A stretch of 60,023 nt of DNA, filler included, from Hausera hauseri (Eukaryota), in the NCBI GenBank assembly GCA_046269625.1. It is 11 parts of 11 records of this genome, joined end to end, with 100 filler letters (N's around TTAATTAATTAA, not from the genome) between each part and the next. Parts side by side here need not be neighbours in the genome. Positions count along the whole stretch, not along the records: positions 18,397 to 24,209 come from JBJURY010184861.1; 10 more parts are not named here. The stretch is one strand, 5' to 3'. The position numbers and the translations under genes were made by a program. Under the pieces are notes generated by a model. It had not been told where the DNA came from. It saw only the letters and a program-made list of their open reading frames with translations, and searched no databases. Below are positions 3,001 through 59,489 of the stretch, one piece after another; position 1 is the first letter of the stretch; every line of letters begins with the position of its first letter.

Positions 3001-3272
3001 ATTTCTAAGTATTAATACCAAATTTGTTATGGTAGTAGCAAATAGACGACCACGCGGGCGAGGGCGATCGTCTTTGTCGTTAATTAAATACATTAGGGGA
3101 AGCTGCCCTAGAAAAATCGCGTCGAGGCAGCGTTAACTCATTTAATTTCTTATTTATGTTGTTAATTGTCTTTTGTAAGATTTCATTTTCCGTGCGTAAT
3201 TGCGCAATTTGTTGCTGCAGCATTGCATTTTCTTGTTGTTGGTCTTTTGTTAATGATGTAGAGATAGATGGT
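1..3272 (-). mobile_element. Decayed Ty3/Gypsy LTR retrotransposon, CsRn1-like (gag 3' part, protease, RT, RNase H, integrase)
   Basis: Fragmented ORFs in Gypsy order: CHCC knuckles at 2896-3040, protease FLIDTGAAISLLP, RT (SPWSSPLHVVPKK, FACIDLHKAYHQIPV, PFGLFEYL), RNase H (TTDASTTAAGAVL, TDHK) and integrase zinc domain (HSLHHPG...). Many frameshifts. Confidence 0.95.
2429..2698 (-). pseudogene. pol: Retropepsin-like aspartic protease of Gypsy pol
   Basis: FLIDTGA catalytic motif and PILDSDFL (ILG-x-DFL-like) motif. Confidence 0.9.
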
Positions 3273-3820
3273 GCTGTGTGAGTGCAGAGAGCTGGTTGAC
3301 CCCACTAAAGTTCCCACTGAGGTCCAACATGTTTCCACAGGCATCAGTTGGCCTGTTATCATTTCAGCCAGGAGTTCAGATACTGATGGAAAGGCACCCG
3401 AGTCATTAAAAGCCCTGCTCCATACTGCTCCACCATCCAGCTCTGCTGAATCAATCATTCGTGCTATGGGAGATGTGCTGTCAAAGATGGACAAGGGATC
3501 AGGGGAAAACAGTGGTTACCGCCGACTTCGAGTGTTCTCTGGCACCTTACCTACACCGGCAGGGGAAGAAGTGTTGGAGCATTGGCTGGAGCAAGCTCAC
3601 CTGATGGTCGAAGAGAGCGACTGCTCCAACAAAGAAAAACGAAGTTGCATAATGGAATGTCTTAGAGGACCTGCTCTTGCTATCATAAAGGCAATACGAA
3701 CAGCTGACGCAGATGTTTCCCCTTCTAAGTGCCTGGATGCTATTGAGAGTGCTTTTGACACAGCAGAATCAGGTGAAGACCTGTACTTTAAGTTTTGACT
3801 ACTGCAACAGGAGAAAGACG
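3268..3820 (+). pseudogene. gag: PNMA (paraneoplastic Ma)-type Gypsy gag fragment, opposite strand to the surrounding element
   Basis: YRRLRVFSG...GEE-x2-EHWLEQAHLMV...MECLRGPAL...CLDAIESAF...ESGEDLYFKF, then a stop and LLQQEKDE. This is a typical PNMA/Gypsy capsid pattern. Confidence 0.85.
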
Positions 3821-3958
3821 AAATACAGAATGGCGAACTCACAGACTTCGTTTTCTTCTATATCTTTCAAATCGCCTGCATCGCCATCTGTTGTTGACAA
3901 TTGTAACTAATTTCGCAAGTTTGTCTGCCTGCAAATTTACTGTTGTCCCAAGCATATT

Positions 3959-4058: not shown

Positions 4059-5030
4059 TGGTGCCTTTGCTAGGACTTGTCGTGTGTCCTAACGGTGAAG
4101 TCAATTTTTTGTAGTGGGTGAGTTTGGCCCACTGTGTTGTGTGAATTTAGTAGTGTTGGTTTTATTGTGTGTTGCAGTTACAGCCAGGTAGGCATTTGTG
4201 TGCCTTTGTGCCAAATTTTGAGTGATAGATGCAAACGATGTTGCTTGTATTGAAATCAGGGGAGTAAAATTTACAACCGATGCAGCATTTTTGAGCATTG
4301 TTACCAAATTTGCTATGATAATAGCAAATAGATGACCGCGCGAGCGACGGCGACCGTCTTTGACGTTGATTAAATACATTAGGGGACGCAGCCCTGGAAA
4401 ACCCCCGTCGAGGCAGCGTTAATTCATTTAATTTTTCGTTTATGTTGTTAATTATCTTCTGTAACTTTTAATTTTCCGTGCGCAATTGCGCAATTTGTTG
4501 CTGCAGCATTGCATTTTGTTGTTGTTGGTCTGTTGTTAATGCTGTAGAGACAGTTGGTATTGTTTTTGAGTGCAGTACTTCATATGCCTTGTCTGCCAAT
4601 TCGCCTAGCTTGTCCAGAGCCGTGGAGTCTTCGACCACGGTAAGCAAAGCTCTTATTTGAAGGAGCAATGCATTTAAAAAATAGCGACGAATAAGTTTTA
4701 GACTATTCTCAGATGTTACGCAAAGGGTGTTAAGGTGAGACAAGGATATGCGTAAGAGTTCAGAAGGCTTCTGAAAGCCCATGGCGTTATCGTCGAAAAA
4801 CCTTTAAATGATGTAGTCGATGGACGGCTCAGTAAGCTTAAGAACGGCATTATAAAGTTGAGTATATGGATCTGTGTGATGAAGGATATCGATGATATTA
4901 GTAATTTTAGTTTTGATGGAAGCTGGTAAGTGGAAAAAAAAGCTGTTTGCTTTGGAAAAAAAAGTCGACGACGTTTTGTGACTGGAGCCAGAATTGGTGC
5001 AGTTTTAGCCAAGTTTAGTAGAGTTTTGGC
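4059..5030 (-). pseudogene. gag: gag of a second CsRn1-like Gypsy copy
   Basis: QKPSELLR...FLNAL..QIRALL...LDKLGELADK, with tandem CHCC knuckles at 4180-4326. Nucleotide sequence aligns with 2770-3272. Confidence 0.85.
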
Positions 5031-5399
5031 TGTCGAAAAAGTATTTGGTGCAGGGTGAATGAGTGAGGAGAATGTGTTGTGTCTAGGTGCTTGAAGCGCT
5101 TTGTTTGGTTAAGTGAATGACAGGGATCTGTGGTTTGGTGAGTTTGTCTGTGGTATCAATTGTGGGTGATGAATCCATGCCAGCACGGATACGGAAATGA
5201 ATGTGAAGGTAGACAAGTTTTAGCAGGTTGGAGGGCTCCAGCGAAAGGCACTATCGATCCATTGTGTGTTATGTAGAAGTCAGAGGAGTGGAGTAAGGTA
5301 GAGATGAAGTTGTGAATGGCCGCGGCGTGTAGGTGCAATGCTGTGCATGTATGAATATATTTGTTATTTAATTAAAGAAAGATGGAGTAGTGAGAAGTG

Positions 5400-5517
5400 A
5401 TACGTCCGGGGACGTGTTGTGGGGCGGCAGCGAAAGGTGTCGTTCGACCCAATGGTGCAGGTTGGGCGGCCGGGACCTCAGCCTCGCCGCGGCGGGTTTT
5501 AAATTTCAGGGTAAACA
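5400..5517 (-). repeat. Probable short LTR (5418-5517) and degenerate tRNA-Trp-like PBS (5400-5417) upstream of gag
   Basis: The minus strand reads TGT...CCGCCCCACA, resembling the LTR ends at 6368 and 34847. It is followed by ACACGTCCCCGGACGTAT, a weak match to the Trp PBS TGGTGACCCCGACGTGAT. Confidence 0.45.
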
Positions 5518-6367
5518 AACTCCCCCTCCAAGGTCCTTTCCTTCTTCTCCCAGTGGACCCAATGAATTTCTTTTCGGATTTTGATCGATAGTCACAGTAT
5601 TGGAGAAAAATAAGGTCATTGATTATGTCAAAAGGATAAATAGACTCTATGGAACAATAGCTGTTTTCCAAATCTTTATTATTTCTGTAGAGCCAATTGC
5701 TATAAATTTCATTGTTTACCGTAGATTCAATTATTGAAGGTTGCAATACATTATACAACAAACCTTTTTGAGCGGTTTTATCATTTTTACTTGGCACCGA
5801 TTCAATTCATTTCGAGATTTCGGTGGTGTGAACATATTTGCAGTCTGAAAAGCGTCATAGCCATAGAAATTTGAGAGATTGTTGTTTCCCGAACAAAACT
5901 GTGGTGGTTCTTGATGTGGGAATCCAATTTCATGATCTCTGAATTAATTGGCCTCGATTTGTTGTTGACCCATCATAATAATACTATTTGGATGAGGATT
6001 TTCGTCATTTAATACAGATGATGGTGGTGCACCTTGGTGCTGCTGCTGCTGGATTTGCATCTGGGCATTAACATTTGGTGCTGCTAAATGCTGATAGTTT
6101 ATTTGCTGTACATTGAGTTGTGCATCGACGAACGTATTGTGTACCTAAGGAAATGGATATTTTTATGTTATACATTCAAATTTGTCTGACAAATGACAGC
6201 TGGTCCATGAAATTGAACGGTAATATTCTTTACCAACAACGCGGAATTGTTCGGAAATTGCTGGGTTGTCGAACTGCAGAACGAGATATCAAAATAGTAA
6301 ACATTGAGATAATTCAAAAATATGGTCACCAACGTTTGAATAAAAGATATCGGCGGTTTATAGAACC

Positions 6368-8007
6368 TGCGAGGTGGGAGATCGGGACCGACTATGGGCA
6401 CGATGCGTCGGCAACGGAGGCCTGGCCGTGCCCAACCAAATGGGTCAAAGGGCACCGGCGGCCATGGGCACCGCATCATCCCCCTGGCAAAGTAAAAACT
6501 ACAAAGGGTAAAAGAGATAGAAAGAAAAACCACAAAAAGAAAAAGTGTCTGTGTCAGCTGGTCTTAGTGTAAATAAGACGTTGGGTACCTTCTACTGATT
6601 TTTCCTGCTATACTTGCTGAATATGATTGCGTGTTTTGTCTTTTTGCGGTGTGCTTGCTTGCAGAGTTTGAAGTTAGGGAAGAAAATTATCAGGTTTTGT
6701 TGTAAGTGTTGTGTCGTGCAAAGATGAGTCAGAATAAAGAGAAGGAGAAGGTGAACGAAGAAGAGAGTTTGTTAAAGACGAAGGAATGATTAAAGGTGTG
6801 GTGGCAGATAAAGGAAAAGAGAAAGAAGTTGAAGTAGAAGCCGGAATGAAATTGTGTGAAAGAGTGGAAGTGGAAGATTAAGCAGCGGTAGTGGTAGAGA
6901 AAGGAAGAAAGATGGGGATAGAAGTAAATAAAAGAGGAAGTCTCGAAGTGGAAGTAAAAGGGGTAGAAGACGATGTGTGAGGAGAAAGGGAGGAAGAAAG
7001 CGCCGAAGATGAGGAAGGTGTGGAAAGAGAAGGAGAGAGAGAGAGAGAGAAAAACTGCGGAAGTACAAGGCGAAAGAGAGCAAGAAGATGAAGAAGACAA
7101 AGGAAAGTAGTTGGGAGGTGTCATGCAAGAGGTAGGAATGATGAAAGGTGTAAATAGAGAGATTGGTGAAGTCAAAACGGTGTTTGATGGAGGAGGTATT
7201 GCAAGAGGAGAAAGCAGGTTGTTACCAGGGAAAGGAGGAGGTGTTGGAAAGCTTGAAGGTGCAAAATCGGGTGGAGAGAAAGAGGCTAAATTGTGAGAAA
7301 TGGAAGTGGAAGTTTTGGGAGAAAACGTAGGGGAAAATGGATTAAGACATTGAGCAGAAATGGAAGGTGAATTGTTGGATTGCTGCGCGTCGTATAAAGA
7401 TGTAGGTGGAGAAGTGACATCGATGAAAGACGTATCGTCGATGAAGAAAGCCGGCTTAGCGTTGTTGATGTGAACTGTTACTTCTTTGTCGTCTTTGAGA
7501 ATTATGATGTTGTGGGAGTATAAGCGAATTACTTTGTAAGGGCCGAGATACTGAAGTTGAAAACTACACGGCGTTTGATTCTTTAGTCAAACAAACTTGG
7601 CAGTATATAAATCGTCGGGTATGTAAGGTTTATTTCCGTGTAACAATCTGCAAAATGAGTCTTTTCTGTTCTCAACAAAGTGTCTCTGTGCCGCTTGTAT
7701 GGTTTTGTCTGTAGGAGTATTGTCCAGCTCATTCAGCTAGAATATAATATGATGGAAGTGTCAAATAATGCTCCTGCAGGTAAACAGCCTGTAGAAGTAG
7801 ATGGTGTGTTTCGCCAGCCAAGAAGAACGTACGGAAGGAGTGTAGTTCAACTGCCATTGGACTTAGCAAGGATTTTAAGAGACGTTTTTATCGTTCGGTG
7901 AAAGCGTTCAAGAAGACCATTCGATGGGGGTGATATGGTGACATGTGAATGTGGTTAATTCCCAATCGATTGACAAGAGCTTTAAACAGGTTGGATTCGA
8001 ACTGTGG
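6368..8007 (-). mobile_element. 3' part of a CsRn1-like Gypsy copy (integrase C-terminus, low-complexity tail, PPT, 3' LTR)
   Basis: Collinear with 34847-36500. Contains the integrase GPY motif, a purine-rich tail on the plus strand, PPT AGGGGGATGA and LTR TGCGG...TCGCA at 6368-6475. Confidence 0.9.
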
Positions 8008-12928: not shown

Positions 12929-13705
12929 TAGTAACTGGACTGATCGTTGCACGTTATATCCGGCGAACATACACCCGTACAAACAATGATCCAACTCTGA
13001 GCGGACTTGTCTACTATCTTTTCCTCTTATGAGCTGTTCTCTTTTTAAGCCGGTTACTTCTTCATATGATTCTTGGAGATGTTTCCGGAGGTTTATGATT
13101 GTAGAGTATATTTCAATCCCATCCCTTTCTTTAATAGATACTTCAATGGGTATTCCATATCCATCATCTCCTCTGCCGCAATTTATCGCGATGATTCTTA
13201 TATTACAACCGTCTTGGATTAGCCTAGATGACTGACGATGTTTATCCTTTTCTACCTCAGTTGGAATTTGTTCAAATTCTATGGCTGGCAAGCGTAGGTT
13301 CCAATCTTCTCTGTAGATTTCTTTCGTTTATTTTAAATGTGCTGAACCGATATTGATGCCCTTCATTGGAGTTCCAGTTTTGGTTTTCCATTCTATAATA
13401 TATTTCTCCGTCAGCTAGGTGGATGTATATATCCTGAATTTTGGCTGGCCGATTTCGGTTTAATTCCTTTAGGGAGTATGCTTTGTCTTGATGATTTTCG
13501 CGCATTGCGTAAAGGTAAATTGTACAATTCTCTGTAATGCCTTTTAGATCATTGGGGATCTCGCTAATTTTTGGGATTTCGATATAGGTTTTTGCTTGTA
13601 AGACTTCGGTTATCCGTCTATACATAGACTTCGATTTCGGAATAAATACTGTGGCTTGTTCCCGCAGATATTCGTAAATGCTAATTCGGCTATCCGTACT
13701 TACTA
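12929..13705 (-). pseudogene. Unknown N-terminal domain plus REX4/ISG20-like DEDDh exonuclease fold (cut by contig end)
   Basis: IIAINCG...EVSI...G.EIYSTII......YEEVTGLKREQL...QVRSEL...L.G.MFAGYNV follows the REX4 pattern VALDCE...RVSIV...G...YD..V.P...YRT.VSGI...L...VQ..V..LL.GRILVGH. The N-terminal domain is homologous to 21917-22350. Confidence 0.7.
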
Positions 13706-13805
13706 TTCTAAAAAATAAAAAATAAGGGTCAATCCTATAACAAAGTATTGTTCTAAATCTGAACCAATTTTTTGTTAGATGGTGGAATAACCCAACCTGT
13801 AATTG

Positions 13806-15215
13806 TCAGGTAATTCCATTATTGATTTCGTTCTGTGGTACCATAATCCTTAATTCCCTCTCGGTGATTTTAATACGCTTATTACAACAGTTTTTGGTAA
13901 TCAATTGACAAAACGCAATAAAAGTTGTGACAGCAAACGTTGACGTTCCAATAATCGATATTGGGTTGTCCATTTAGTTAGGTCTTTCGTTTTAGCGGTA
14001 GTCGTAGTTTCGTCTTCCATTTCATCGTTAGTTAGTGGCTTCGTTAAGACAATTTTGTTTATAGTTCGTACCGTAAACGTTCTACTTTGTTTATTCTCTG
14101 CACCTATTTCTATTACGTAGTCTGTTTTGGGTTTTAAGTAGGTGCAATTAATTCGATGGCTTCCTTTAGCCAGTGTCACTTTTTGATTATTGTGTAACGT
14201 TCGGCAGCTCATTTTTACGCCGCAATTCATTGCTTCCTCCACAACACATTTTATTTCACGTTGTTGTGTCCAATATTTTACAGAAATTATTTCTAGATTC
14301 TTCTGAGGTAATCCACTTGTTTGAAAGACTCTGTTGGAAGTTGAAGTAGTCGTATTCGTTTTTGTAGTCGTAATTCTACTTGTTGCCATTTTGGGCGGAA
14401 TTCCCGAAACTAGATTTTCCAATTGATAACATCCTAGGTAAATGCTCGGCTGGTTTGGTCGAATTTCATATAAATCTAACCGAATTCAATATTTATATCT
14501 CTGGGGTAACTTACAACACCTATTCGGCCTTTCGACGTCAATTTGACAGTATTATTGATTGTGAGCCGCCTTGTTCTCCCTTATGAATTGAACCGTAATT
14601 ACTCGTCCTTTAATTAACCGTCCCTTTGTGTTTATTTGGATGCAGTTGTCCTTTGGGTTTTCCGCTATACTAGCCATATTTTCTTCTAGCATCCGTTTTA
14701 ACGGTTTGACGGACTGGAGCAGGTCTTCTAGCTCTATATTAAGATAGTATCCATAAGTTCGTGGTATAACTATATGTTAATTTAATTTTATTTCTGCGTG
14801 TACATTATTACAGTTCGGCAAATATGAACGATAACTGAGAGCGTAAGAATGTTTGTATTCTACGTTGTAGCAAATTGTATCATCTGACTCGAATTTACAA
14901 TCAAATTCGACTTGGCTAGATAGGTCATAAAATAATATTTGGATTTGCCCCTCATATGGTCCTGGTAACCTAAACCCGGCACATGGGGCCTCTGGTGAAA
15001 AATGATCTAATTTTATTGCTCGTAAAAATTTCTCGTCTTTTTGTTCTGATTTGTGTTCGGGTGCTTCCTCCCTTGGCAGTGAACGATTTAATCCGCTTTT
15101 CATGATCCCATATATATCGCTCATCGAAGTTTCATCGACCCACCATTAGGCGTTAGACTTAGGAGTTAGGACAGCAATCAATGATAAGGCTACTTTTATC
15201 TGCGCGTAAGATACT
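13806..15215 (-). pseudogene. Type I membrane protein: signal peptide, three FN3-like Cys modules, Thr-rich stalks, TM
   Basis: YAQIKVALSLIAVLTPKSNA lies in frame after the integrase GPY. The FN3 signature is LKPKTDYVIEIGAEN...FTVRT. After a frameshift near 13975 the frame reads PISIIGTSTFAVTTFIAFCQLI-TKNCCNKRIK (TM plus basic/Cys tail). Confidence 0.7.
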
Positions 15216-15299
15216 GGTCTAGTGATGACTGACAAAGTCCTTGTTTCTTGCTGTCTTAGACTGTAGTGTTTACCTGGTCTTATATCTGTTTTAACTACT

Positions 15300-17900
15300 C
15301 TTTGAATCGATACTACTTCTTCTTTGCCGTTTTTATTAACATAGACTGTGGTTGGCGTTGTGCGGACGATTTCATATGGCCCTCTTCCAGTACGGGTTAA
15401 TTTCAATGATGTACCTTTCTTCGCGACCGGATAATGTATATAAACCCAGTTCCCTTTTTCCAGATCATGAAGCTTAGCCTTTTTATCATATTGTTTTTTA
15501 AATTGTTCCTGGTATTCAAGTGATAATATTTTTGCAACTTCCTAACACTTTTGCAATCTTGCCTGTAAGACTTCGGCAAGGTTTTGCTCTAGAGCCTCGA
15601 GACTCTTCGTACGGCACTTTACCTAGATCTGTAGGTAAGATTGATTCTCGTCCATACATAAAAAAGAATGGTCTAAATCCTGTTGCTGGATGTGGGGTCG
15701 TATTGATTGCGAACTGTGTCCCTTCTAAGAATTTGTCCCAACCCTTTTGGTCCCTAGTCACTACTGTTGATAGTATACGAATGACTGTTGCGTTCATTCG
15801 TTCGACCATTCCATTACATTGGGGTAGTACGCGGTAGTGGTTAAACGTTTTATTTTGAATATCTTGGTAATCTGTTTGAATAATTCACTTGTGAAGTTCC
15901 TTCCTCTATCCGTTAAAATTTAGTACGGCGGTCCTTATCTTCAGATGATTTTCCTTATCACTGCCTCGGCTAAAGTTTTTGCCTTTTGGTCTAATAGTGC
16001 CACTAGTTCGACAAAGTGCGTTAATCGATCCACGCATGTTAGAATATATCTGTTATTTTTATGAGTTTTAGGTAAGGATCCCACTATATTCATAGACATA
16101 GCTTGCTTCGGCCTGTCTGGTACGCTCATGGGCTTTAATTCGGCTACGTAGACTTTCGTTTTCTTTTGCTTTGTTGCACAAATTTGGCAAGCACTTATTT
16201 AATTTTTCACATCGATATAAATGCTTGGCCAATAGTATTTATTTAGTATCCTTTCGCAGGTCTTTTCCCAAGACATGTGTCCAGCTAAATATGAATCATG
16301 TTCGGCCATAAGTACTTCAATGCGTAATCCTTTTGGAATAACTATTAATCTTCTTCCCTTTCGCTCGTAATATAGGATGTTATCTTGGTTCGATGCGTGA
16401 TATTTATGTCCGTACTTCTGTAGATGCTTTTTCAGTTGTCGTCCTTTGGGCATTTTGCCGTTTTGTGCAAACTCAATAATTTGCTGAATAACCTTATCTT
16501 TAGCTTGCTCTGCAGTGATCCTGATCGTTTTATCCAGGATTAGGGTTCTTTGACGTTCAGTTATTTGTTCGAGTTACGTTTTCTCCGCTGAGTAATCCGA
16601 CTTGTTTTTGTCTTTAACCTTGATAATGCGTTGGCGTCGACGTGCTTATTACCTGGTTTGTATTGGAATTCAATGTTATATCGTCAGATTTCCTCGATCC
16701 AGCGGTTTAATTTACATGTTGGGTTACTAGCTCGTCCTCTCAATGTCGTAGTCGCTTTGTGGTCGGTCACTATTATACTCATTTGTTCATAGACATAGAC
16801 ATTAAAGTGTCATAGTGCTTCCTTTACGGCTAATGTTTATAATCTGGTAACCGAGTAATTCTTTTCTGCTTTCTTTAACGAGCGTCCTCCATAGGATATT
16901 GGGTGTTCTACTTCTTTATCTCCTCGTTTCTGAGCTAATTCATATCCTATACCTTCTTTACTTGCATCTGTTTTATGATGCTATCATTACGTCGTAGGTT
17001 CAAATCAGGGTATCTTAGAACTGGTTCGCCTGTCAAAATTTTCTTCATTTCATCGAATGCTTTTTGCTTCACTTCCGTCCATCTCCACTTAGTCCCTTTT
17101 TTGAGTAGGCGATATCGTGGTGCGTTAATTTTCGAATTGGCCGGTACGTAAGTGGCATAATACCCACATAGGTCTAACCAGTGTCTCAGCTCTTTTTGAT
17201 TCTGCGGTTCCATACAATCGGATATTTTATTTAGCAGGAATTTATCCGGTTTTGATCCTCCATCTCAGACTATGTGTCCGAGGTACAATACTGCGTTCTG
17301 TGCCCATTTACATTTCTTTGGATTTAGTTTCAACCCTGCTTGTTCCAGTCACATGAGTGTATTTTCAATGTCCCTTAAGTGTTCTTCTTCTGTTTTTGAT
17401 GCTATCATTACGTCGTCCAGATACGCGAAAACATGATCAAGTCTCATGAAAATCTTATTCATCATTCTAGTAAAGATAGCTGGTCCTGTGGTGATGCCGA
17501 AAGGCATAACATTAAATTCGTATACGCCATCGTGTGTTTTAAACGCTGTCTGATATCGATCTTCTTCTTCGATTTCCACTTGCCAGTATCCCGACTGTAA
17601 GTCAAGAGTGGTAAACCATTTCGTTCCCGATAGTCTGTCTAAAGTTTTCTTTACCGACGGTGAGGGAAACCCGTCTTTCATCATAAGCGTGTTTAATGCC
17701 CTATAATCTATACAAAATCGATGTTTCGTGGTTCCTTGATAAGTAGCTTGGTACCATGATAAGTAGCTTGGTCGAATTATATCGGCCTTTAACATTCGCT
17801 CTGCCTCTTTAGTTATTTCGGGTCTCAATGAATGGAGAGGTGTGTACCATTTGGGCATTTTCTGCTCTTCTGGATCGATTTCGTCATTAGAGCCGGGTTT
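15300..17900 (-). pseudogene. pol: Gypsy pol (RT-RNase H-integrase), frameshifted
   Basis: YLDD; HDSYLAGH...YYWPSI; VERMNATV...W...FAINTTPHPATGFRPFFFMYGRE; GPYEI. Confidence 0.95.
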
Positions 17901-18411
17901 TTTTCTTATTGGAATTGTTAATCTCAGGGCTTTTGATCTACCTATGTCTTCTTTATTTTGTGCAATTATTGAACAGTATTTACATAGTAATTCGTAGAAC
18001 TTGCAATACGCCTCAGGAGGAAATTTGGTTTAGACGTGAGGTGGAAATTCTGCACATTTGTATGGTTTTTCCTCTGTTGTTACTGCCGATACTCTGCAAG
18101 TGTGACCTAAAGTAGTGTTAGCGTGCAATCTTACGGGGGTTGGTGCATTGTTCACTAATCTGATATGTATGCGTTCCGTCGCTACTCAAGATAAGATATT
18201 GCTAAACATGAGGTTTGGGTCGATATTCTCTTGAGGTTCAAAATATACTGGCAGATCTTCGTCTTGACGAATCTGTGCGAAAATTATCATTTCGGTNNNN
18301 NNNNNNNNNNNNNNNNNNNNNNNNNNNNNNNNNNNNNNNNTTAATTAATTAANNNNNNNNNNNNNNNNNNNNNNNNNNNNNNNNNNNNNNNNNNNNCCAG
18401 TCCCAAAAACA

Positions 18412-20330
18412 GTGAAAGGAGTTCGTAAATTTCTCGGTCTTACAGGATATTATAGAAAATTTGTTAAAAATTATCAACAAATAGCTTCTCCTCTACACTC
18501 ATTACTACAAGAAAACTCCAAACTTGTGTGGACGCAGGAATGTCAAAAAGCATACCAACAACTAAAAGATAGTCTGTTAGCCCCACCAATATTGGCTTAT
18601 CCAAATATGTCTAAACCATATTTTTTAGCCACAGACGCAAGTAAAGTTGGAATAGGAGTTGTTTTATCTCAGAAGGATGATCAAGGACAAGAACATCCTA
18701 TATCATTTGGAGGACGGAAACTGAGAAAACACGAGAAAAATTATTCTACAATTGAGAGAGAATTACTCGCAATCGTATACGCCTTAGAACAGTACGGACA
18801 GTATCTGTCGGAAACTAAACCAATTATCATCTATACTGACCATAAGCCATTACAATGGCTAAAGAACCATAAGAATCCAAATAGTCGTTTGATGAAATGG
18901 GCAATGCTACTCCAACCTTACGATTTAAAGTTCGAATATAAAACTGGTAAGGCCAATGCAAATGCAGACTATATGTCTAGAATACCTGAAGATATTGATC
19001 AAGAGGAAGAAATAACGGATAAACCAAGTGTAATAGCAGCTATTTGGAGTATTACAGAATACGAAAAATCGTTGCAGCAGAAACAACGGAGTGATGAACA
19101 AATAAAACAAATTATGGAATATCTCCAGAAGAAAATTACGCCAAAAGATACTGATCTCCATACTCACTTGATAAAGTTTGCTGAAAATTATCAAATGAAA
19201 GATGGTATACTATATTATAATTACAAAGGAAAACTGGTCGTTGTCGTCCCCCAAGAAGATGTAAAATTATTGTTAACACAATACCATGATGGCATGTTGG
19301 GAGGACATCAGTCGAAGAAGCGAACACTAGGCAGACTGAGGAGAAAATATTACTGGCATAAAATGCCTAAAGATGTAGAAGAATGGTGCAGAAGTTGCCC
19401 CATTTGTGCAACACGGAAGAATACCGGCTCAAAAATTAAGGTCCCTTTGAAACCATTAGAATGTCCACCAGCTCCTATGGAGTTCTCAGCAATGGACATC
19501 TTAGGACCACTGCCAATGACGATAAATGGAAATAAGTATATGTTGGTTTTTGTTGACTTATTTTCCAGATGGCCAGTAGTAGTTCCGATACCAGACCAAA
19601 AAGCACAGACTATTGCACAAGCATTTGTTGAAGAGATTGTATTTAATTATGGAGCACCTACTAAACTATTGACGGACCAAGCTCCAAATTTCACTGGAGA
19701 AGTAATGGCTGAGATATCGAAAATATTTCAAATATTACAATTAAAAACTACCCCATATCATCTACAAACCGATGGAGCGGTCGAGCGATTTAATGAAGTT
19801 CTGATTAACATGTTGGCGACAATAGTTGGGGGACGACAGGATGATTGGGATGAATGTATTGGACCCTGTTTGTTCGCCATTGGGAACGCGATTTATCCTG
19901 CAACCCGGGAAACTCCATTTTATTTAATGTGTCTTGGAGATGCTCACATGCCCGTTGATTTGGATTTCAGGATATCAGCTTCACACTTGGAGGATGTAAA
20001 ATATCAAGAATTACTGGAGGAAAAATTGGGTTATGTATGGAGTTTGGCTTCGCAGAATATGAAAAGATGTCGGAAAGAATGCAAAGATGGATGTGATGAG
20101 GGAGCCAAAAGTCATAGCTTTAAACCTGGGGATAAAATTGTGTTGCATGCACCTTTGTGTAGGAAGGGAAGGACTCCGAAATTGGATAGACCATGTGGGG
20201 GGTCCATATATGATTCAAAAGGTGGATGAAACAAGTGTATATTTAAACAGGAATAAAAGAAACGAGAAGGATCCTATAAAGATTCATGTGAATCGATGTA
20301 GACTAGCACCGTTGGAATCACAAATAAGAA
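18412..20330 (+). CDS. pol: Gypsy Pol: RT connection, RNase H, integrase (HHCC, DDE, GPY)
   Basis: FLGLTGYYRKFV, ATDAS..GIGVVL, YSTIERELLA, YTDHKPL, HDGMLGGH...CRSCPIC, MDILGPLP, TDQAPNF, DGAVERFN. A 1-nt frameshift in the G-run near 20197-20202 precedes GPY. Confidence 0.96.
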
Positions 20331-21637
20331 ATGGAGATCCAGGTTTGTCATTGGTGGTGGCATTTGTGATGTTGAGTCTGATGACTTGTATATCGGCCCG
20401 GGAATTGGAGCCGATATATCGTGGGGTATAGGTCGGAAAATACCCCTGCATACGAGTATTTGGAAGTCGAAATTTGACTATCAACGATTATGTCTATATG
20501 CATATATCGAGGGTATCCACATCACAGAGGGTGATCGCTGGATCTTGTGATTTGTATTCGAAACGTTCTAGTCACATCTGCTGCGGTTTGTCATGTTGGA
20601 TGTCATATGGAGTTCAATATGCTCTTACTGGAATAATAGACGAGAAATGGCGCACATCTTGTTGCTCATTTCCGGGTGTGATATACTGCTTTGGTAAGCC
20701 AGATTTCCTTGTAACATTCTGCACAAAGATTGTGAAAAATGGACCATGTGTAACGTCTGAGCCAGATTCCCCGGTGGCCAGGCATCGAACAATTAAATAT
20801 GCAATGTTTAATAAGACCAATACGATGGAGTGTAGACCTTTTTATCGGGATCCTCATCTATGTTGCCCCATAGCCTTTGATAGGGAGTATATGATATGGT
20901 GTTGGACAAAATTGGGAGCGAATGGTGACTGGAGATAATCGGATGGGTTGATGGCTCCAGAAGTGGTGGTGAAATCACCAAGGGTAATAATAACCTTAAA
21001 AAGGAGAGTGACTACTCCGCTGACACTGCCCACTGTAGCGGCTAGTCCAACTATAGAAGCTGAGAAGAATATCAGGGAATTGGATATAATTGTCCAACCA
21101 ACAACTCACTCACTGGTTATTGCAGTGTCCAATTTAAAAACCACAAACGTGGAATTTGAATGTTGCTTTTACCATGGGAGAATGAGTGAGGGTGTCATAA
21201 CTCCAGAGGAGCCCACATCGGCTTGTGTGTTCCTGGGGAACGATACGAATTATAAGATAGCTGTAGCCGAACTTGATAAAGAAGGACAAATTTTGCAGAC
21301 AGTTTGTCGTATAGGAAAGACGTTAAAGCAAGTGGTTTTAACGACAACAAAAATTATAGAAATAACAAATGTGCAAAATCATGATGACAACGAGAATAAA
21401 TATTTTTGGATACTCGTTGTACTGTGTATCTTCTTGGTGTTATTAGCCATACCTTTACCTTTGATATTTTATTTCTTGAAAATGAGACAACGACGGCGTG
21501 GAATCGGGGAAATATTGAATCAATTAAGGATGTTAAGAGAGGACTCCCAAGAATCGTTAGCGGACATAGGCGCGCCTTGTTCACAAGAACAACGGCGAGT
21601 TGAAAAAAGTGGGCAAGCCGGGGAGCTTGCCGATTAG
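20330..21637 (+). pseudogene. Type I membrane protein: signal peptide, three FN3-like Cys modules, Thr-rich stalks, TM, basic cytoplasmic tail
   Basis: ORFs 20087-20431, 20474-20938 and 20948-21637 share one frame. Signal-like GLSLVVAFVMLSLMTCISA, FN3-like FLGNDTNYKIAVAE, and TM YFWILVVLCIFLVLLAIPLPLIFYFL followed by KMRQRRR. Confidence 0.8.
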
Positions 21638-21916
21638 AAGCAGCTAGTACGGCCGCTAGAATGTGGACTGACTGGGGAATTTGCCAGTCAAGAGTGGCAG
21701 TCCCTACCGCTTGGAGGTATAACTGTGTGTCTATGCACGGGAATTCGGGACCAGGCCGCAAAATTCCTAGCGACCTCTACTTGTGGACAATCAAAATGTA
21801 AAGATATTATTATATGTAGAAAGTTTTGGCCGCTGTTGATATTGATTTTTTTGGTCGGCGAAGGGTCCGAACAGGTCCAGTGACCGAGCATTTTTTGACG
21901 CAGTATTGTTGCCAGT

Positions 21917-23041
21917 TTGTTGGCGTCCAGCAGGAATTGCGTCTGCTATAAAGGGGCCCATATGATGCCAAATCACCTAAAGGGACAAACTGTGGATCGG
22001 AGAGGTGGCCTTATAATTAAGTTACAAGCATGTTCTACTATGTTGTCTGATTTGATCGATCTCACAAGAGGAGTTATAGCCATCTGCGTTTCAGTGTCGA
22101 ATGGAACTATTCAGTTGAGAGGCGGGGTTCTCTCTAATGGAATCACTGATGCAATTGACATTCCGTCCTCAACCACGATTGGATTGGATGAGAGGTTCTT
22201 CGAAAATGTGGAGGTAACTATCAGGATTGTAAATAAAATTCATCCGGTCTTATATATCGAGGTTGTCAGGCAGGAGAATGTTTTCCATAATGAGTCAAGG
22301 CAACTCAATTGCCCAATGTCAATTCCTAGTGATTCTTTACTGGGGAGGGGTGCATCGTTTGTAAGATCGACTCAAATACGGAAGGAGGATATGGTAATTG
22401 TGACTACTGGTTCCGCGTATGTTATGCAGCCAGTTCGCAAAATGGAGGTGACACTGATGGAACTAGCCATTATGAATTTGGATGGTGAAGTTATTTTCGA
22501 TAGAATATTGTGCCCACGTGACAGAATGGATAATTGTAGTAGTCATGTGGCCGGCTTAAGAGAGCCGGACATAATGGGACGGACAGATCTCTTGCAAACT
22601 TGCTCTCTGATTGAAACTCATCTTATCGGAGAAATTATCGTTGGAATGAATGTATTTTGTACTCTTAATTGCATTCTTGGATGCAGTCATCATTTTGTCT
22701 TGGGCATGGGAGATCTACTTTATCATGAGAGGGCCAACCCGAGACAGGAGTTTGATTCCTAATACATTTTGACTGCATTCAATAATGGTGCTTGCCCTCG
22801 GGGAACAAAGGATGGAGCGGGGTCAATGCTGGATATATATAGTTCAATTCCGAAATATAAAGATGAAAACCTAATGGATAATATATCATTGACAGGTACC
22901 CATGTGACTGATTTGGAAGTCAAAGAAAACCCTGGGAGGACAGGGGATTTCGCGAGTGGCAAACGGCTTTTTCAGATGTCTTTGATAGGAAGTGGCGAAA
23001 TGGAATTGTCATTGACGAAAGGACCCAAGAAAATGAAATAA
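21917..23041 (+). pseudogene. Unknown N-terminal domain plus REX4/ISG20-like DEDDh exonuclease fold
   Basis: ELAIMNLDGEVIFDRILCP...DNCSSHVAGLRE.DI...L.GEIIVGMNV...MGDL (IRDT-like)...TKDGAGSMLDIY (SVEDARA.M.LY-like). One in-frame stop at 22760-22762. Confidence 0.78.
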
Positions 23042-23844
23042 GGGAGATCTGACTTGGCAGATTCCTCAACTCAAGTTACAATCGATTTGACAAGGAACAT
23101 AAGAAAGTCAATTTCGTCTAAAGAGACAATTGCACTAAAAAGAGGGATTGAAGTGGGGGATCAGTGGCTGGAAATGGATGCAGTGCGGAGACGGCTTCAT
23201 CTGGGGAGGGAGGTGTCGAACATGTGAGTCGGGTGTCAATTGACTGACTGACCGGATTGATTGATCTTTTATATTGTTTTGACCAAAGTTTAATTTTCAT
23301 CTAATTGTTTTGTTGTTTTGGAAATCGAGTGTGAATTTTTGTGATTTTTGTCATGTGAAAGAGGGGTATACAAACCTCAACATTTTGTCACAATACACAA
23401 TATTCTCTTCATGTCTACTTATGCTCTTCGTGATTGTAAGTGTGTTTTTTTATTCATTTTCATTTTATTTTGGTTATCATTAATTAGATAATATTAAAGG
23501 ATTAGTGATTTTATTCTTTTGTTGTACGTACAAGAAATTAATCTTTGGTAGTAGGTGTAAGTAAATATAAAATCAAGACCCTTTTTCTTTTAGCGTCCAT
23601 AAAGTCGCTGATTTTAAATTCATTGCAAGTAAGGGAGAGACCGCCAGTATTGCCTCCTGGCGTCGTACTCACACATTAAGATTAATTAAGAACTATAAAT
23701 AAGTCATATCAATCCACAGATTGCTACTCCAGAATTTAAGTAAAGATAAGTTTGAGGTGCATTGACCCAGACTTGTATTTGATTGATTTTAGGCTTGGTG
23801 AGTAAAATCTCCAAGCTAACTTATAACAACCTTAAACTTATCAT

Positions 23845-23861
23845 TGGTGCCCCGAGTGAGG
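23845..23861 (+). promoter_or_regulatory. Primer-binding site, elongator tRNA-Met
   Basis: TGGTGCCCCGAGTGAGG lies one nt after the LTR end CA. It matches the complement of the animal elongator tRNA-Met 3' end (TGGTGCCCCGTGTGAGG) with one mismatch. Confidence 0.85.
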
Positions 23862-23964
23862 AGGCACACTGGCGTCGTATTCTTTACGTAAGAGACACGC
23901 TATTAATATAAATTCGTGCACTGATTCGGTACGGAGTAGCCCCGAATTAGACGAAAATCTTTAG

Positions 23965-24209
23965 TTGGAAAATCAGAATCCCGAAATGTCCTCAGAACTT
24001 GGAACCAGTTTAGGTAGTAATCTAAACAGTACGATGGTATTACCCATGGAAAAATACGAGGCGAAGCCGGACCAAGATTACGCAGAGTTCATTATGCAAT
24101 ACGAAATGTATTCCGAAAGTTATGGATGGACGGATGAGCATAGGATCAAACGGCTCCCTTTACATCTTAAAGGCATAGCACTTAGTGCTTATACCCAAAT
24201 AAAAGAAGA
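23965..24209 (+). CDS. gag: Gypsy gag N-terminus (cut by contig end)
   Basis: KYEAKPDQDYAEFIMQYEMYSESYGWTDEHRIKRLPLHLKGIALSAY is a Ty3-type capsid pattern, about 100 nt downstream of the PBS. Confidence 0.88.
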
Positions 24210-34254: not shown

Positions 34255-34456
34255 TTCTTTACAATTACGTTTTTCATGTAACTGGTACCTTTCTTTACAT
34301 TTATGATAATAGGATCCAATGGTATTTGTACAAAAATGCTCGCAGCAACTATTTTGATATGCGTATTCATCTTCGTTTGTAAAATAATATACTTTGAAAC
34401 CTTTTTTCTGTACGGTTCCGTCCGAGAAGAGTGCGATTTTAACTTCATTTGTATTG
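34255..34456 (-). pseudogene. BMP1/tolloid-like CUB-EGF coding fragment
   Basis: NEVKIALFSDGTVQKKGFKVYYFT-NEDEYAYQNSCCEHFCTNTIGSYYHKCKERYQLHEKRNCKE resembles tolloid F.SD.TV.KKGF...D.DEC...NGGC.H.C.NT.GSY.C.C..G..LH....CKE. Some Cys/Gly residues are lost. Not present in the ORF track. Confidence 0.8.
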
Positions 34457-34846
34457 AAATTTCATTTAGTTATTCCAACAATATTAATTGTAAATTCATG
34501 CGTGGAAAATCGATTGTTTGAGCCGTTGTATATGGTGGTTGCGTTCGAATGGAAAAGTTATGAATGGAATACAATTGCAGATGCTGGACGGAGATGGGAG
34601 CTAAAGACTGTTCTGCTGCACAGTAATTTGCGAGTTTTCGTTTGTTATGTGTCGTGGATAATTTTGAACACTGACAAAATATTCCTAACTTTCTCTAAGA
34701 CGATCTAATTGAAATCTACAAAATTCGACATGATTAAAGCGGTTATTTACAGAGGATTCAAAGATATTTTGTAGACGTTGCAATATATGAAACTACAACT
34801 TCATGAACGTTATTTGTCACTAGAATATGAATTGCTGCAATGAAAT

Positions 34847-37800
34847 TTAGAGGCGGAAGATCGGGGCCGACTATGGACCCAACACGGCGGCAATGGACGC
34901 CCGGCCGTGTCCAACCAAATGGGTCAGAGGGCGCTGGCCGCTGTGGATACCACATTACCCCCACCCCCCGCCCGTGGCAAAGTGAAAACTATAAAGGGTA
35001 AAAAAGAAAGAGAAAAAAACGCAAAAGAAAAAAATATCTGTCAGTCGGTGTTAATGTAGACAAGACATTGGGTGCCTTTTAATGATTTTTCCTGCTATAC
35101 TTGCTGAATATGACTGTGTGTTTTGTTTTTATGTTGTGTATTTGTTTGCAGAGGTTGCAGTTGGGGAAAAAATTGTAGGATTTTGTTTTTAGTGTTGCGT
35201 CGTGCAAAGATGAGTCAGAATAAAGAGAAGGAGGATGTGAAGGAGGAAGAGAGATGGTTGAAGATGAAGGAATGATTAAAGGTGTAGTGGCGGATAAAGG
35301 AAAACAGAGAGAAGTTGGGGTAGAAGTGAAAATTGAATTATGTGAGAGAGTTGAAGTGGAAGATGAAACAGAAGTTGTAGTAGAGAGAGGAAATGGATAG
35401 GAAAAGAGATAAAGAGAGGAGAAAGTTGTGAACCGGAAGTGAAAGGAGTAAAAGATGATGTGTGAGAAGAAAGATGGGAAGAAAGAGCCGAAGATGAGGA
35501 ATGTGTGGAAAAAGAGGGACAGAGAGAGAGAGAGAAAACGGCGAAGTGCAAGGCGAAAGAAAGCGAGAAGATGGAGAAGGCAAGGATGAGTAGTTGGAGG
35601 GTGGTGTGCAAGAGTTTGGAATGATGAAAGGTGTAGATAGAGAGATTGGTAAAGTCGAAATGGTGTTTGATGGAGGAAGTGCTGCAAAAGGAGAAAGCAG
35701 GTTGTTGTGAGGAGATGAAGGAGGTGGTGGAAGGCTTGAAGGTGCAAAATCGGATGGGGAAAAAGATGCTGAACGGTCAGAAAAAACTGAAGTAGAAGTC
35801 TTGGGCGAAAACGTATGAGAAAGTGGATTAAGAAATTGAGCAGAGATGGAAGGTAGATTGTTAGATTGCTGCGCGTCGTGTAAGAATGATGGAGGAAAAG
35901 TGGTTTTGATTGGAGACGTGTCGTCAATGAAGAAGGCCGGTTTAGCATTATAGATGTGAACGGTTATTTCTTTGTCGTCTTTGAGAATGATGATGTTGTG
36001 GGAGTGTAAGCGAATAACTTTGTAAGGGCCGAAATACTGAGGTTGAAAACCACACGGCATCTGATTCTTTAGCCAAACAAACTTGGCAGTGTATAAATCG
36101 TCGGGCATGTAGGGTTTGTTTGCGTGTAACAGTCTGCAAAATGAGTAATTTCTGATCTCAACGAAGTGTCTGCGTGCTGCTTGTATGGTTTCGTCTGTGG
36201 AAGTATTGTCCAGCTCAGTCAGCTCGAATAATGATATGATGTAAGTGCCAAATAATGCTTCTGCAGGTGAACAGCCTGTAGAAGTTTATGGTGTGTTCCG
36301 CCAGCCAAGCAGAACGTACGGAAGGAGTTTGGTCCAACTGCAATTGGACTCAGCAAGAATTTTGAGAGACGTTTTCATTGTTCGGTGAAAGCGTTCGAGA
36401 AGGCCGTTCGATTGGGGATGATATGGTGACGTGTGAATGTGGTTAATTCCCAATCGATTGACAGGAGCTTTAAACAGGTTGGATTCGAACTGTAAACCTT
36501 GGTCCGAGATGATGTGGCGAGGTGATCCAAACCTGCTGATCCAACTGCGGTTTCTGTGTTAGTGCTCCGAAGAGGGACGGTTTCTGGCCATCGCGAGGCA
36601 CGGTCCATCATTATGAGGATGAACTGATGGCCGTTGTCTATGGGTAATGGGCCTACAATGTCAATGTGGACAGATTCGATACGAGACGTGCAGGAAAAAT
36701 GAAATAATGGTGGCTTTAGGTGCTTAGTAATTTTGTATTTTTGGCATGCCACACACTGCCTAACCCATGCCTGCACGTCAGAGCGCATCGACAGCCATAC
36801 TACTTGGTGTTGTAAGAGGCGAAAAGTGGCCTTGGCACCAGTATGATGCAACGAATGTACGCTGTGGAACGCTTATTTTTGAAGCCACTCAGAAAGAATG
36901 ATTTTGGAATTATTAGGTTTGGAGGTGTCAAAGGCCACACCGTCAATGGTATTGCAAGATTTAAAAAATTTAAGGATGTCAAGAAATGGCTGGTTTTGTT
37001 GAAGCTTGGTTTGATGAAAAATTGTTATAAAATCAATCGAGCTGACCGCTCGGGACAAAAAGTCAGCTACTAAATTGTCCACTCAGTTTAAATATTTAAA
37101 GTGAAAATTAAATGTTGACAAATACGATATTCGCCTCTCCTGACGTGGCGAAGGTGATTTCGTGGTGAGAATTTGAAGCAAGGGCTTGTGGTCCGTTTGT
37201 ATGGTAAAAGTTCGTGCAGTTAGGATATGTTTGAAGTGTTTTTCGGCAAGGACCATTGCAAGCAATTCTCGTTCAAAGGTGGAATATCTTTGCTCTTGTT
37301 CCGTGAATTTTCGAGAGAAGAACTCTGGTGACTCATGAAATCCATTTTAACTTGATGGAGGATTGCACCCGCAGCTGTTGTGGATGCGTCGGTGGTTAAG
37401 AAAAGTTCTGCATATAAGTCTGGATAAGCCAGAATTTCCACAGTTTTCAAATTGTCTTTGAGACGATCGAAAGCATTGACTAAATTGGCGGTCCACTGAA
37501 TAGGCTGTTTCTTCTTGCCAGAGCTTAGTGCTGTAAATGGAGCGGTTAAAGTGAAACAGTGCGGAACGTACTTATGAATAAAGTGCAAGGTTCCGAGGAA
37601 AAAACGCATCTCTGTTGATGTACGTGGCAGTTGTATGGTTTTGAGCTGAGTGATGCGGTTCGGCTGAGGTGAATGTCCTAAGGAGCTAATAACATGACCT
37701 AGGAAATTGACCTTTTGTTGAAAAAAAAAAGCATTTAGAGAAATTGATTTGCAAGTTGTTTTGGTGTAAGCGCTGGAAGATTAGACGTAAGTGTTTGGAG

Positions 37801-38625
37801 TGCTGCTTCGAGGAAGAGGATGCAATTAAGATGTCATCAATATAGGGATAGGCGAAGTCTAATCCTGAAAGAACTGTATCGACATGCCTTTGGAAGGTCT
37901 GGGAAGCGCTACGGAGTCCAAAAGGCATAAAGAGGTATTCGAAAAGGCCGAAATGTGTAATGACAGCCGTTTTCGGAATGTCTGCGGTGGTATGCTTTAT
38001 ACAGATCAATGCAGGAAAAGACGCTTTCACCATGGAGCCTGTGAAGGATATCGTTGACTAATAGTAGAGGGTAGGCATCCATTGTTGTTATGGTGTTGAG
38101 TTGGCGGTAATCACCGCATGGGCGAAAGGTGCTATATTTTTTGGAACCACATGCAGTGGTGAAGACCAGAGGGATTTGGATCTTCTGATTATGCCTGATT
38201 TTTCAAGGTCGAGAAACTCAGCCTTCACTGCCTGTCTGCGTCGAGGTGATAGCGGGCGGACCTTTTGCCGGATTGGTCGTTGATGTGCAATTACGATGTG
38301 ATGAAAGGTGGATTGAGGTGGTACGAATGATTTGTCCTTTTGCAACAGACGCGTGAAGGAGGACAAAATGTATTGCTGTAAATCAGAAGGCAACGATGAC
38401 AAATTATCCGATGGTGTCGATGCATCGTGACTGGATGAAGTTGGGGTATGAGTTGTAGACAAGGTGTTGCGACTAGGTGGTATTTGGTGCAGGATGTTTG
38501 TGTTGAAATTGGTGTTGGCAGCTGTGCTATTAGTAATTGGTGCCACGCAGTTGGCAATATCGCATTTGTCACAGTAATAAAAATTTCTATATAATAAATA
38601 ATTATGAAAATAATTCAAATCAGTA
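34847..38625 (-). mobile_element. Decayed CsRn1-like Gypsy copy (RT, RNase H, integrase, low-complexity tail, PPT, 3' LTR)
   Basis: YIDD, TTDAS, VHIDIVGPLP and FGPYKV motifs. Collinear with 1-2330 and 6368-8007. PPT GGGGGGTGGGGG precedes the LTR at 34847-34954. Confidence 0.95.
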
Positions 38626-48085: not shown

Positions 48086-48201
48086 TTGTTTGTCTGTCAA
48101 TCGACAATCGTACGACGACGATGTTTGTTTATAGTTGATGAGCTCGATGATGCTTTACGGCGTTTTCTCAACTATTACCAGCGAATTGTTTTTTGACTGA
48201 T

Positions 48202-48899: not shown

Positions 48900-48999
48900 N
48901 NNNNNNNNNNNNNNNNNNNNNNNNNNNNNNNNNNNNNNNNNNNTTAATTAATTAANNNNNNNNNNNNNNNNNNNNNNNNNNNNNNNNNNNNNNNNNNNN

Positions 49000-59400: not shown

Positions 59401-59481
59401 TTTAACTACTTTCTGATTTTTTATCCCTCTACAATCTTTTTCCCCTGCAATAAGTTTAGTAAAAAAGGTGCCTCGTTTCAC
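56454..59481 (-). CDS. LINE ORF2 (AP endonuclease plus RT), one frameshift near 59120
   Basis: HQNIQC, LTEHWL, VYRSP, GDFN, CLDNI and SDH (APE); NYRPISLL, QHGFR, DLSKAFD, GVPQGSVLGP, FADD and FLG (RT). Confidence 0.95.
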
Positions 59482-59489
59482 TCCACGAC

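Follow-up and report, generated by a model that had tools for sequence, protein, structure and literature searches.

A private tract of A-to-G change, about 3.6 kb long, in the DNA of an LTR retrotransposon copy from Hausera hauseri, with the 5' neighbour preference of ADAR

The window analyzed here is a 60,023-nt stretch of Hausera hauseri DNA consisting of 11 contigs joined via N spacers, and the finding is confined to the contig at 18397-24209. Judged from its domains and translations, this contig is a Ty3/gypsy-type LTR element with membrane-protein and exonuclease-like cargo. Its features are as follows.

18400..20311, + strand: 3' part of pol with RNase H, H2C2 zinc finger, and integrase core and tail (Pfam, homologues, frames)
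19768..23356, + strand: sense-strand A>G hypermutated tract of ~3.6 kb (change-point, excess estimate, sister-copy spectra)
20312..21637, + strand: cargo 1, rich in Cys, predicted to be a type I membrane protein, and continuing the frame in which pol ends (translation)
21899..23041, + strand: cargo 2, an ORF whose second half may resemble an ISG20/REX4-type DEDDh exonuclease (a lead only, from weak structure-database and Atlas matches)
23357..23366, + strand: polypurine-tract-like run at which the hypermutated tract stops (motif position)
23367..23843, + strand: probable LTR, single and not G-enriched (extent inferred from PPT-like and PBS-like motifs on either side)
23845..23862, + strand: PBS-like sequence beginning with TGG (motif)
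23986..24209, + strand: opening portion of a gag-like ORF that follows the LTR (translation; resembles the P0004 N-terminus by eye)

The pol part matches RT_RNaseH (2e-39), Integrase_H2C2 (4e-20), and rve (6e-13) in Pfam, and pol closes with RNase H and then H2C2-integrase, which is the order of Ty3/gypsy elements (Metaviridae). Homologues P0002-P0004 match pol at 46-48%, and 25 pol homologues carry RT, RNase H, and integrase families. Three distant related loci lie in metagenome contigs (25-39%) and were left out of the comparisons; none were found in viral contigs. The initial 1.37 kb of pol is outside the tract, and the reading frame is disrupted by a frameshift near 20194-20197. Of the hallmarks of an LTR element (two LTRs, PBS, PPT, and target-site duplication), the contig, which is permuted and cut, holds one probable LTR between the PPT-like and PBS-like motifs. 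Because the start of the gag-like ORF stands after the LTR, the contig is either permuted or derived from a tandem element. The gag-like start has very deep sister cover and no Pfam match. The PBS-like sequence may match the end of a methionine tRNA; a search for tRNA genes found none. Pairs of internal repeats in other parts of the window, which are 83-87% alike, have two-way spectra of 42:66 and 72:55 and contain no such tract.

Cargo 1 has a hydrophobic start, a Thr/Pro-rich stalk, and a near-terminal hydrophobic segment in translation, and is interrupted by in-frame stops at 20429 and 20936. No Pfam family scores above the cut-off for it, and a protein search returned no homologue. Cargo 2 has an in-frame stop at 22760 and likewise gave no Pfam match and no homologue in the protein search. 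Its sole two PDB matches, ISG20 (E=0.14) and ISG20L2 (E=0.55), are both weak, and it matches Atlas RNase_T clusters at 0.81-0.80, so that the putative exonuclease fold is only a lead. A related element at 12929-18296 carries similar cargo. The membrane-cargo pieces of the two elements match at E=0.028 only and the exonuclease-like pieces at E=0.001.

Composition delimits the tract sharply. The change-point analysis places it at ~19768-23366, with the 3' end at 23355-23366, at the polypurine tract, and the log-likelihood gain is 26 compared with a maximum of 10.8 over 200 permutations. An earlier sequence-only reading had placed a hypermutated tract at 19800..23200, and its 3' limit was right to within ~150 bases. 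The G share of purines is 0.47 within 19768-23366 and 0.34 outside, and is 0.36 in the LTR region (23250-23850). The excess G in the tract is estimated at 256-282, or ~20% of former A, and in two well-listed intervals 11 of 46 and 11 of 57 A are changed, which is a dense and bounded cluster. The same test on the related element at 12929-18296 gives a gain of 2.4, and its G share stays at 0.30-0.38 throughout pol and cargo, indicating that the cargo is not G-rich by nature. An element with similar cargo that is not G-enriched also lends no support to a link between the editing and the exonuclease-like cargo.

We compared the contig with sister copies, taken as contigs of a public run (X1) that is possibly the window's source sample and whose library is not on record. 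There are 202 differing places in 20780-23250, of which 113 have G in the window and A in the sisters. The strand mirror of this class (window C/sister T) holds 25 places, the reverse class (window A/sister G) 16, window T/sister C 24, and transversions 24. The dominant class exceeds its mirror at p=1e-14 (1e-7 once G and C content is corrected) and its reverse at p=4e-19. A>G thus outweighs every other class, on one strand only, the RNA sense, and it is 4.5 to 7 times as frequent as its mirror and its reverse, so the lack of A>G excess that would have refuted the sequence-only reading did not occur. In the rest of the contig, which includes the first kb of the tract, the 677 places compared with X1 give 135 : 106 : 112 : 150 for the same four classes, with little excess, and 113 : 25 : 16 : 24 differs from this at Fisher p=2e-7 and 3e-11. 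The dominant class occupies 22 of the 32 listed rows in 19763-21113, and none of the best-supported 40 rows of 951 fall in 18397-19762, the part with the deepest cover. In run X2, which has another organism code, the dominant class makes up 8 of 16 places in 20780-23250. In the sisters, A makes up nearly all of the depth (as much as 6945 of 6951), occurs in as many as 46 contigs, and is present under two organism codes. The Gs are therefore private to this copy rather than shared by all copies, and a private, one-strand A-to-G tract of ~3.6 kb in the DNA of an LTR retrotransposon copy is confirmed.

Three known sources of clustered change do not fit this spectrum. APOBEC DNA editing would appear as sense G>A in the edited copy, a class that holds 16 of the 202 places. 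Mutagenesis by diversity-generating retroelements changes A to all three other bases, and at sister A the window has C at 4 places and T at 3, neither of which is raised, against G at 113. Repeat-induced point mutation changes CpA/TpG on both strands, and had it acted in the sisters it would not account for 25 mirror places against 113, or for the 29 of 54 best-supported sites that have no 5' T.

Across 19940-23243, five X1 contigs of 292-1209 bases are identical to the element, at a depth of 3.5-11.4, so one fixed pattern is present in many molecules, unlike heterogeneous edited RNA. A sequencing or assembly artefact, or contigs assembled from edited RNA, would be hard to reconcile with these ~3.3 kb of zero differences, with X1 contigs that total 1212 million letters and are genome-sized, or with a frameshift and stops in the tract that resemble an aged DNA copy. 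The uncertain provenance of X1 lends such an origin some room, and a contig permuted around one LTR may contain chimeric joins. Such an origin could account for where the tract starts and stops but not for the tract itself, and we regard it as extremely improbable.

The neighbours of the changed bases were counted at the 54 best-supported listed sites; two G/A rows that lie beyond the tract limits were excluded. On the 5' side stands T at 25 sites, A at 19, C at 9, and G at 1. The single G results from scoring as A five neighbours that belong to the listed sites, and the depletion of 5' G depends in part on this scoring: without it, G precedes 6 of 54 sites (p=0.012 relative to kept A and 0.13 relative to the flank). 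The share of A changed is 0.22 after T, 0.12 after A, 0.10 after C, and 0.009 after G (chi-square p=1e-5), and 5' T and 5' G also differ from the unedited flank (p=9e-5 and 1e-4, respectively). This is the ADAR pattern, in which the edited site is seldom preceded by G and preferentially by U, and the preference for 5' T or A named in the sequence-only reading holds at 44 of 54 sites. G depletion upstream is the pan-metazoan ADAR motif and 3' A is preferred in invertebrate hyper-editing (PMC5625713), and T precedes the edited A at planarian ADAR2 sites (PMC8797187). At our sites the 3' neighbour is G at 18, A at 14, T at 12, and C at 10 (raw 3' G 23), and A and G jointly are not enriched; the lean toward 3' G departs from the invertebrate preference, and could be explained by unlisted edited neighbours. 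The 3' base expected of ADAR is A in invertebrates and G in mammals.

At coding sites, 36 of 50 changes are non-synonymous, compared with 266 of 384 expected from kept A (p=0.75). This share is as expected without selection, indicating a single burst rather than slow drift under selection. In the two cargo frames, 29 of 43 listed sites alter the residue, and 11 of these yield Cys (4) or Gly (7) in the window, which justifies the earlier caution that some cargo Cys and Gly may be editing products. Residues read from the cargo genes of this contig, such as Cys counts and catalytic sites, are accordingly unreliable. Protein-level tests are less uniform. The shift against the three closest homologues gives p=0.007, 0.20, and 0.45 and is significant for one of three, and in conserved columns, a weak test, A>G alone explains 5 of 19 differences in the tract and 6 of 41 in the flank. 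Of the pol and exonuclease motifs singled out from the sequence, FAIGN, LMCLGD, and MGD contain listed rows that belong to the dominant class. WDECIG and KRCRKECKDGCDEG have no row among the 80 shown, but at both of them the distant homologues show the difference that A>G change predicts. At seven listed pol sites, the distant homologues match the sister state at 3, the window state at 2, and neither at 2, indicating that some G/A differences are no edit of this copy.

The two pol sites at which the homologues match the window, together with the raw 3' G count of 23 of 54 and a polarity derived from short sister contigs rather than a tree, are what speaks for the opposite polarity, in which the window keeps an old G that the sisters lost by APOBEC-like or RIP-like G>A change or by A-biased drift of an active subfamily. 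This reading conflicts with the sister A found in nearly all depth and under two organism codes, with Tyr and Arg that are lost in the window and kept by three distant homologues, and with a flank and a relative (S3) that share the sisters' composition. Symmetric decay should also raise the mirror class equally (25 against 113), and drift in an active family should be mostly synonymous, whereas only 14 of 50 changes are. It is already largely refuted, and we consider it highly improbable.

A burst by the reverse transcriptase in one replication round, through nucleotide-pool imbalance or a mutator enzyme and without RNA editing, would produce one class on one strand free of selection equally well, and it would suit a tract with no visible duplex partner. 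The neighbour ranking of T > A > C >> G, however, matches ADAR, the tract ends sharply, sparing the LTR and 1.37 kb of pol, and nucleotide-pool imbalance mostly yields G>A. We therefore judge such a burst unlikely.

The interpretation of the sequence-only reading, ADAR hyper-editing, is supported: very probably, ADAR hyper-edited RNA of the element, and reverse transcription and integration of this RNA then left a dead copy. In this account, antisense RNA or an inverted copy beyond the contig would have paired with the 3' part of the element RNA, forming a duplex in which ADAR converted roughly one A in five to inosine. Unedited RNAs would have supplied the reverse transcriptase and integrase that copied the edited RNA after packaging, with inosine templating C, and the resulting copy, integrated into the germ line, would have been inactive from birth and would not have multiplied. 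Inverted repeats in the 5.8-kb contig do not exceed 27 bases at 74%, and a search found no fold-back, which would place the partner in antisense RNA or outside the contig. The abrupt limits of the tract, one within integrase and the other at the polypurine tract, would be duplex ends, switches between edited and unedited templates, or an assembly join.

If ADAR or another deaminase acted on A in DNA or in an RNA:DNA hybrid while reverse transcription was under way, no antisense partner would be required. The polypurine tract, where the edited stretch stops, is a reverse-transcription landmark and would fit this route. RNase H, however, removes the RNA strand of the hybrid after copying, and editing of minus-strand DNA should read as sense T>C, which shows no excess (24 places). 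According to a review, ADARs can act on DNA:RNA hybrids in model substrates, but such action is not documented for any retroelement (PMC12925331). We hold this route to be very doubtful.

RNA editing is regarded as transient, and the ADAR reading would turn a normally temporary RNA change into a heritable one. The 3.6-kb scar indicates that heavily inosine-bearing RNA can likely survive packaging, reverse transcription, and germ-line integration. We tentatively propose, as a possibility that we rate below even, that germ-line ADAR is a heritable mutator of invertebrate LTR retrotransposons and the counterpart of vertebrate APOBEC DNA editing, acting on kilobase-long duplexes of packaged genomic RNA that integrate as sterile copies. 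If so, such copies would form a fossil record of ADAR sequence preference and of the limits of antisense RNA or template switches. The evidence is one copy. A literature search that covered few subscription papers returned no report of germ-line-fixed, ADAR-edited invertebrate LTR copies.

Among known systems, the bdelloid elements Juno and Vesta resemble this one in carrying nuclease and membrane-protein cargo after pol, as a DEDDy exonuclease or a transmembrane ORF3 (PMC5408684). Cargo 2 here leans, as a lead only, to the ISG20/REX4 DEDDh type instead, and the word "editing" is absent from that paper. In C. elegans, as may be the case here, ADARs affect the regulation of invertebrate LTR elements (Fischer and Ruvkun, PMC7084138); that control acts at the level of RNA and silencing, and the text available reports no DNA-fixed edited copy. 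The LTR retrotransposons "DNA-edited" by APOBEC are like the present case in that a single, strand-biased hypermutated copy is fixed beside unedited sisters, and that study uses the same mirror-class and reverse-class tests (Knisbacher and Levanon, PMC4866542). Those copies carry sense G>A through DNA deamination and occur in vertebrates only, whereas the present copy shows A>G in the neighbour context of ADAR. In the same study, a screen of 19 invertebrate genomes, mainly for G>A, found no DNA-edited LTR elements, and other mismatch clusters were very rare (PMC4866542).

The type of scar itself is already known from avian retroviruses; what is unexpected here is the class of element, the length of the tract, and its sharp stop at the polypurine tract. 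As in these exogenous vertebrate retroviruses, sense-strand A-to-G bursts in an LTR-bearing retroelement are recorded in DNA after reverse transcription. The retroviral bursts lie in U3 or an inverted repeat and reach nearly 50% of A, whereas here ~20% is changed over 3.6 kb of integrase and cargo, with no cis inverted repeat and the LTR spared, in an endogenous Ty3/gypsy-type element whose host is apparently an invertebrate.

The stretch at about 19770-23360 is a private, unselected burst of A-to-G changes confined to the sense strand, with ADAR-like neighbours and one fixed pattern. The tract is real, and ADAR is its likely cause. It lies in one of 11 contigs (4-10 kb each) that are joined in the window by runs of N around a 12-base stop-codon spacer; segments side by side are not adjacent in the genome. 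The features of this contig are as follows.

18397-24209, + strand: tract-bearing contig
within 18397-24209, + strand: pol, 3' portion only (Pfam: RNase H, H2C2 finger, integrase)
near 20194-20197, + strand: frameshift that breaks the pol reading frame
3' of the frameshift, + strand: cargo 1, Cys-rich and membrane-protein-like, in frame with the end of pol, with two stops
3' of cargo 1, + strand: cargo 2, ORF with one stop and some resemblance to ISG20/REX4 exonucleases
23357, + strand: polypurine-tract-like run
between the polypurine-tract-like run and the primer-binding-site-like motif, + strand: probable LTR
23845, + strand: primer-binding-site-like motif
3' of the primer-binding-site-like motif, + strand: gag-like ORF, start only

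The pol has 25 gypsy-type homologues, the best of which reach 49-53% over the integrase part. Cargo 2 has no match in Pfam and only two in PDB, ISG20 (E=0.14) and ISG20L2 (E=0.55), while its Atlas features point to RNase_T clusters at 0.81; its putative exonuclease-like nature is a lead only. At 23357-24209 the LTR, the primer-binding-site-like motif and the gag start all lie downstream of pol and cargo, a layout of either a permuted element, tandem copies with one common LTR, or a collapsed assembly.

A decayed gypsy element at 12929-18296 (- strand), about 38% identical in pol amino acids, has a cargo layout that is alike by eye (pol, membrane-protein-like cargo, exonuclease-like ORF), and its exonuclease-like ORF matches cargo 2 at E=0.001. 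In the nearest relatives (the distant homologues P0002-P0004) the cargo in frame with pol is of other kinds: P0002 has PF12796/PF13857/PF13606 repeats, presumably ankyrin, and P0004 has PF24664, presumably a viral fusion protein, between gag and protease. Cargo swapping seems frequent in the clade. Elsewhere in the window, 1-3958, 4059-8007 and 34255-38625 are pieces of a single LTR family with G skew; they are 83-87% alike, have a long tail rich in Pro and Ser 3' of integrase, and show two-way substitution spectra. A fragment at 3268-3798 (+ strand), presumably a PNMA-like gag of a kind known from vertebrate gypsy elements, adjoins invertebrate-type repeats. ORF pieces at 47000-48951 and 50530-51312 (- strand) are presumably Polinton/Maverick-like capsid and polymerase-associated genes, and 56454-59529 (- strand) holds an 894-codon ORF of LINE-like endonuclease/reverse-transcriptase type, which is frameshifted once close to its start.

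A two-point fit to the G share among purines places the tract at 19768-23366 (0.47 inside versus 0.34 outside), with a gain of 26 against a maximum of 10.8 in 200 permutations. The related element at 12929-18296, used as a control, stays at 0.30-0.38 throughout (gain 2.4). The excess of G amounts to 256-282 bases, about 20% of the former A, consistent with 11/46 and 11/57 A changed in two well-listed intervals. The 3' end of the tract coincides with the polypurine tract; because that run is rich in G as well, the end can be placed only to within some tens of bases. The LTR shows no G enrichment.

We compared the whole contig with two public runs, X1 (6610 contigs; perhaps the source sample) and X2 (815 contigs; another organism code). 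Five X1 contigs (292-1209 bases, depth 3.5-11.4) are identical to 19940-23243 without a gap, and all others are sister copies. Among the best-supported 40 of 951 rows, 32 fall in 19763-21113, 22 of them window G/sister A; none falls in 18397-19762, the region of deepest cover, and 8 of mixed classes lie beyond 23500. Across 20780-23250, X1 shows 202 differences: window G/sister A at 113 places, 25 C/T, 16 A/G, 24 T/C and 24 transversions; X2 differs at 16, 8 of them G/A. The G/A class exceeds its mirror, C/T (p=1e-14; 1e-7 with base-content correction), and its reverse, A/G (p=4e-19). By subtraction, the other 677 places, which still contain the tract's first kilobase, give G/A 135, C/T 106, T/C 150 and A/G 112, and the 20780-23250 spectrum differs from this remainder (p=2e-7, mirror; 3e-11, reverse). 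Ordinary divergence between copies is expected to account for about 16-25 of the 113 G/A places.

As to polarity, A stands at these sites in nearly all sister depth (up to 6945/6951, across as many as 46 contigs) and under either organism code, and the Tyr and Arg residues lost in the window are retained by three distant homologues. The protein-level test is weaker: for P0002, the ratio of mismatches explained by A>G to those explained by G>A is 26:32 in the flank and 18:5 within the tract (p=0.007), versus p=0.20 for P0003 and 0.45 for P0004. Of 7 listed pol sites, the distant homologues share the sister state at 3 and that of the window at 2, and have neither at the other 2.

Neighbours were counted at 54 listed sites in the tract (22 from the whole-contig comparison, 32 from 20780-23250; the count omits two G/A rows that lie outside it). 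The 5' base is T at 25, A at 19, C at 9 and G at 1 when five neighbours, each a listed site in its own right, are counted as A (raw 5' G, 6). The sequence-only reading had proposed a 5' T or A preference, which holds at 44/54. Relative to nearby kept A, the share changed is 0.22 after T, 0.12 after A, 0.10 after C and 0.009 after G (p=1e-5). The T enrichment holds either way of counting (p=9e-5), and raw G depletion gives p=0.012 against kept A and 0.13 against the flank. Metazoan hyper-editing as described in PMC5625713 is depleted of upstream G throughout and, in invertebrates, favours downstream A; planarians have ADAR1 and ADAR2, and T precedes the edited A (PMC8797187). Here the 3' base leans to G (18/54), a lean that unlisted edited neighbours could produce, and A and G together are not enriched. 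At coding sites, 36/50 change the residue versus 266/384 expected (p=0.75), which argues for no selection and hence one burst. In line with the suspicion that some cargo Cys and Gly may be editing products, the residue changes at 29/43 cargo sites, and at 11 of these the window has Cys or Gly.

For ADAR, the substrate would be a double-stranded 3' part of a genomic RNA in which about 1/5 of the A were deaminated, the edited RNA then being packaged, reverse-transcribed and integrated by proteins of unedited RNAs. No inverted repeat was found across 18397-24209, so an antisense RNA, or else an inverted copy lying outside the contig, would have to serve as the other strand of the duplex. The tract may end where the duplex ended, where synthesis switched template from one packaged RNA to another, or at assembly joins; the contig has a permuted order about its single LTR, and no piece among those listed spans either end. 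The copy's contigs are long, unbranched and at the lowest depths, which suggests that it did not multiply, a hint because depth is not a copy number. Host defence, as first proposed, is an interpretation: the edited RNA did integrate, albeit as a mutated copy, and planarian ADARs are described as damping the antiviral response (PMC8797187). Nothing connects the exonuclease-like cargo with editing.

Within incomplete literature coverage, we found no ADAR-edited LTR copies fixed in an invertebrate germ line. The hypermutated LTR copies fixed in genomes that PMC4866542 describes are APOBEC G>A cases in vertebrates, with invertebrates as the negative control. ADAR-type A-to-G changes are on record for Rous-associated virus, avian leukosis virus, HTLV-2 and STLV-3 (PMC12925331), and C. 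elegans LTR elements are reported to be regulated by ADARs (PMC7084138).
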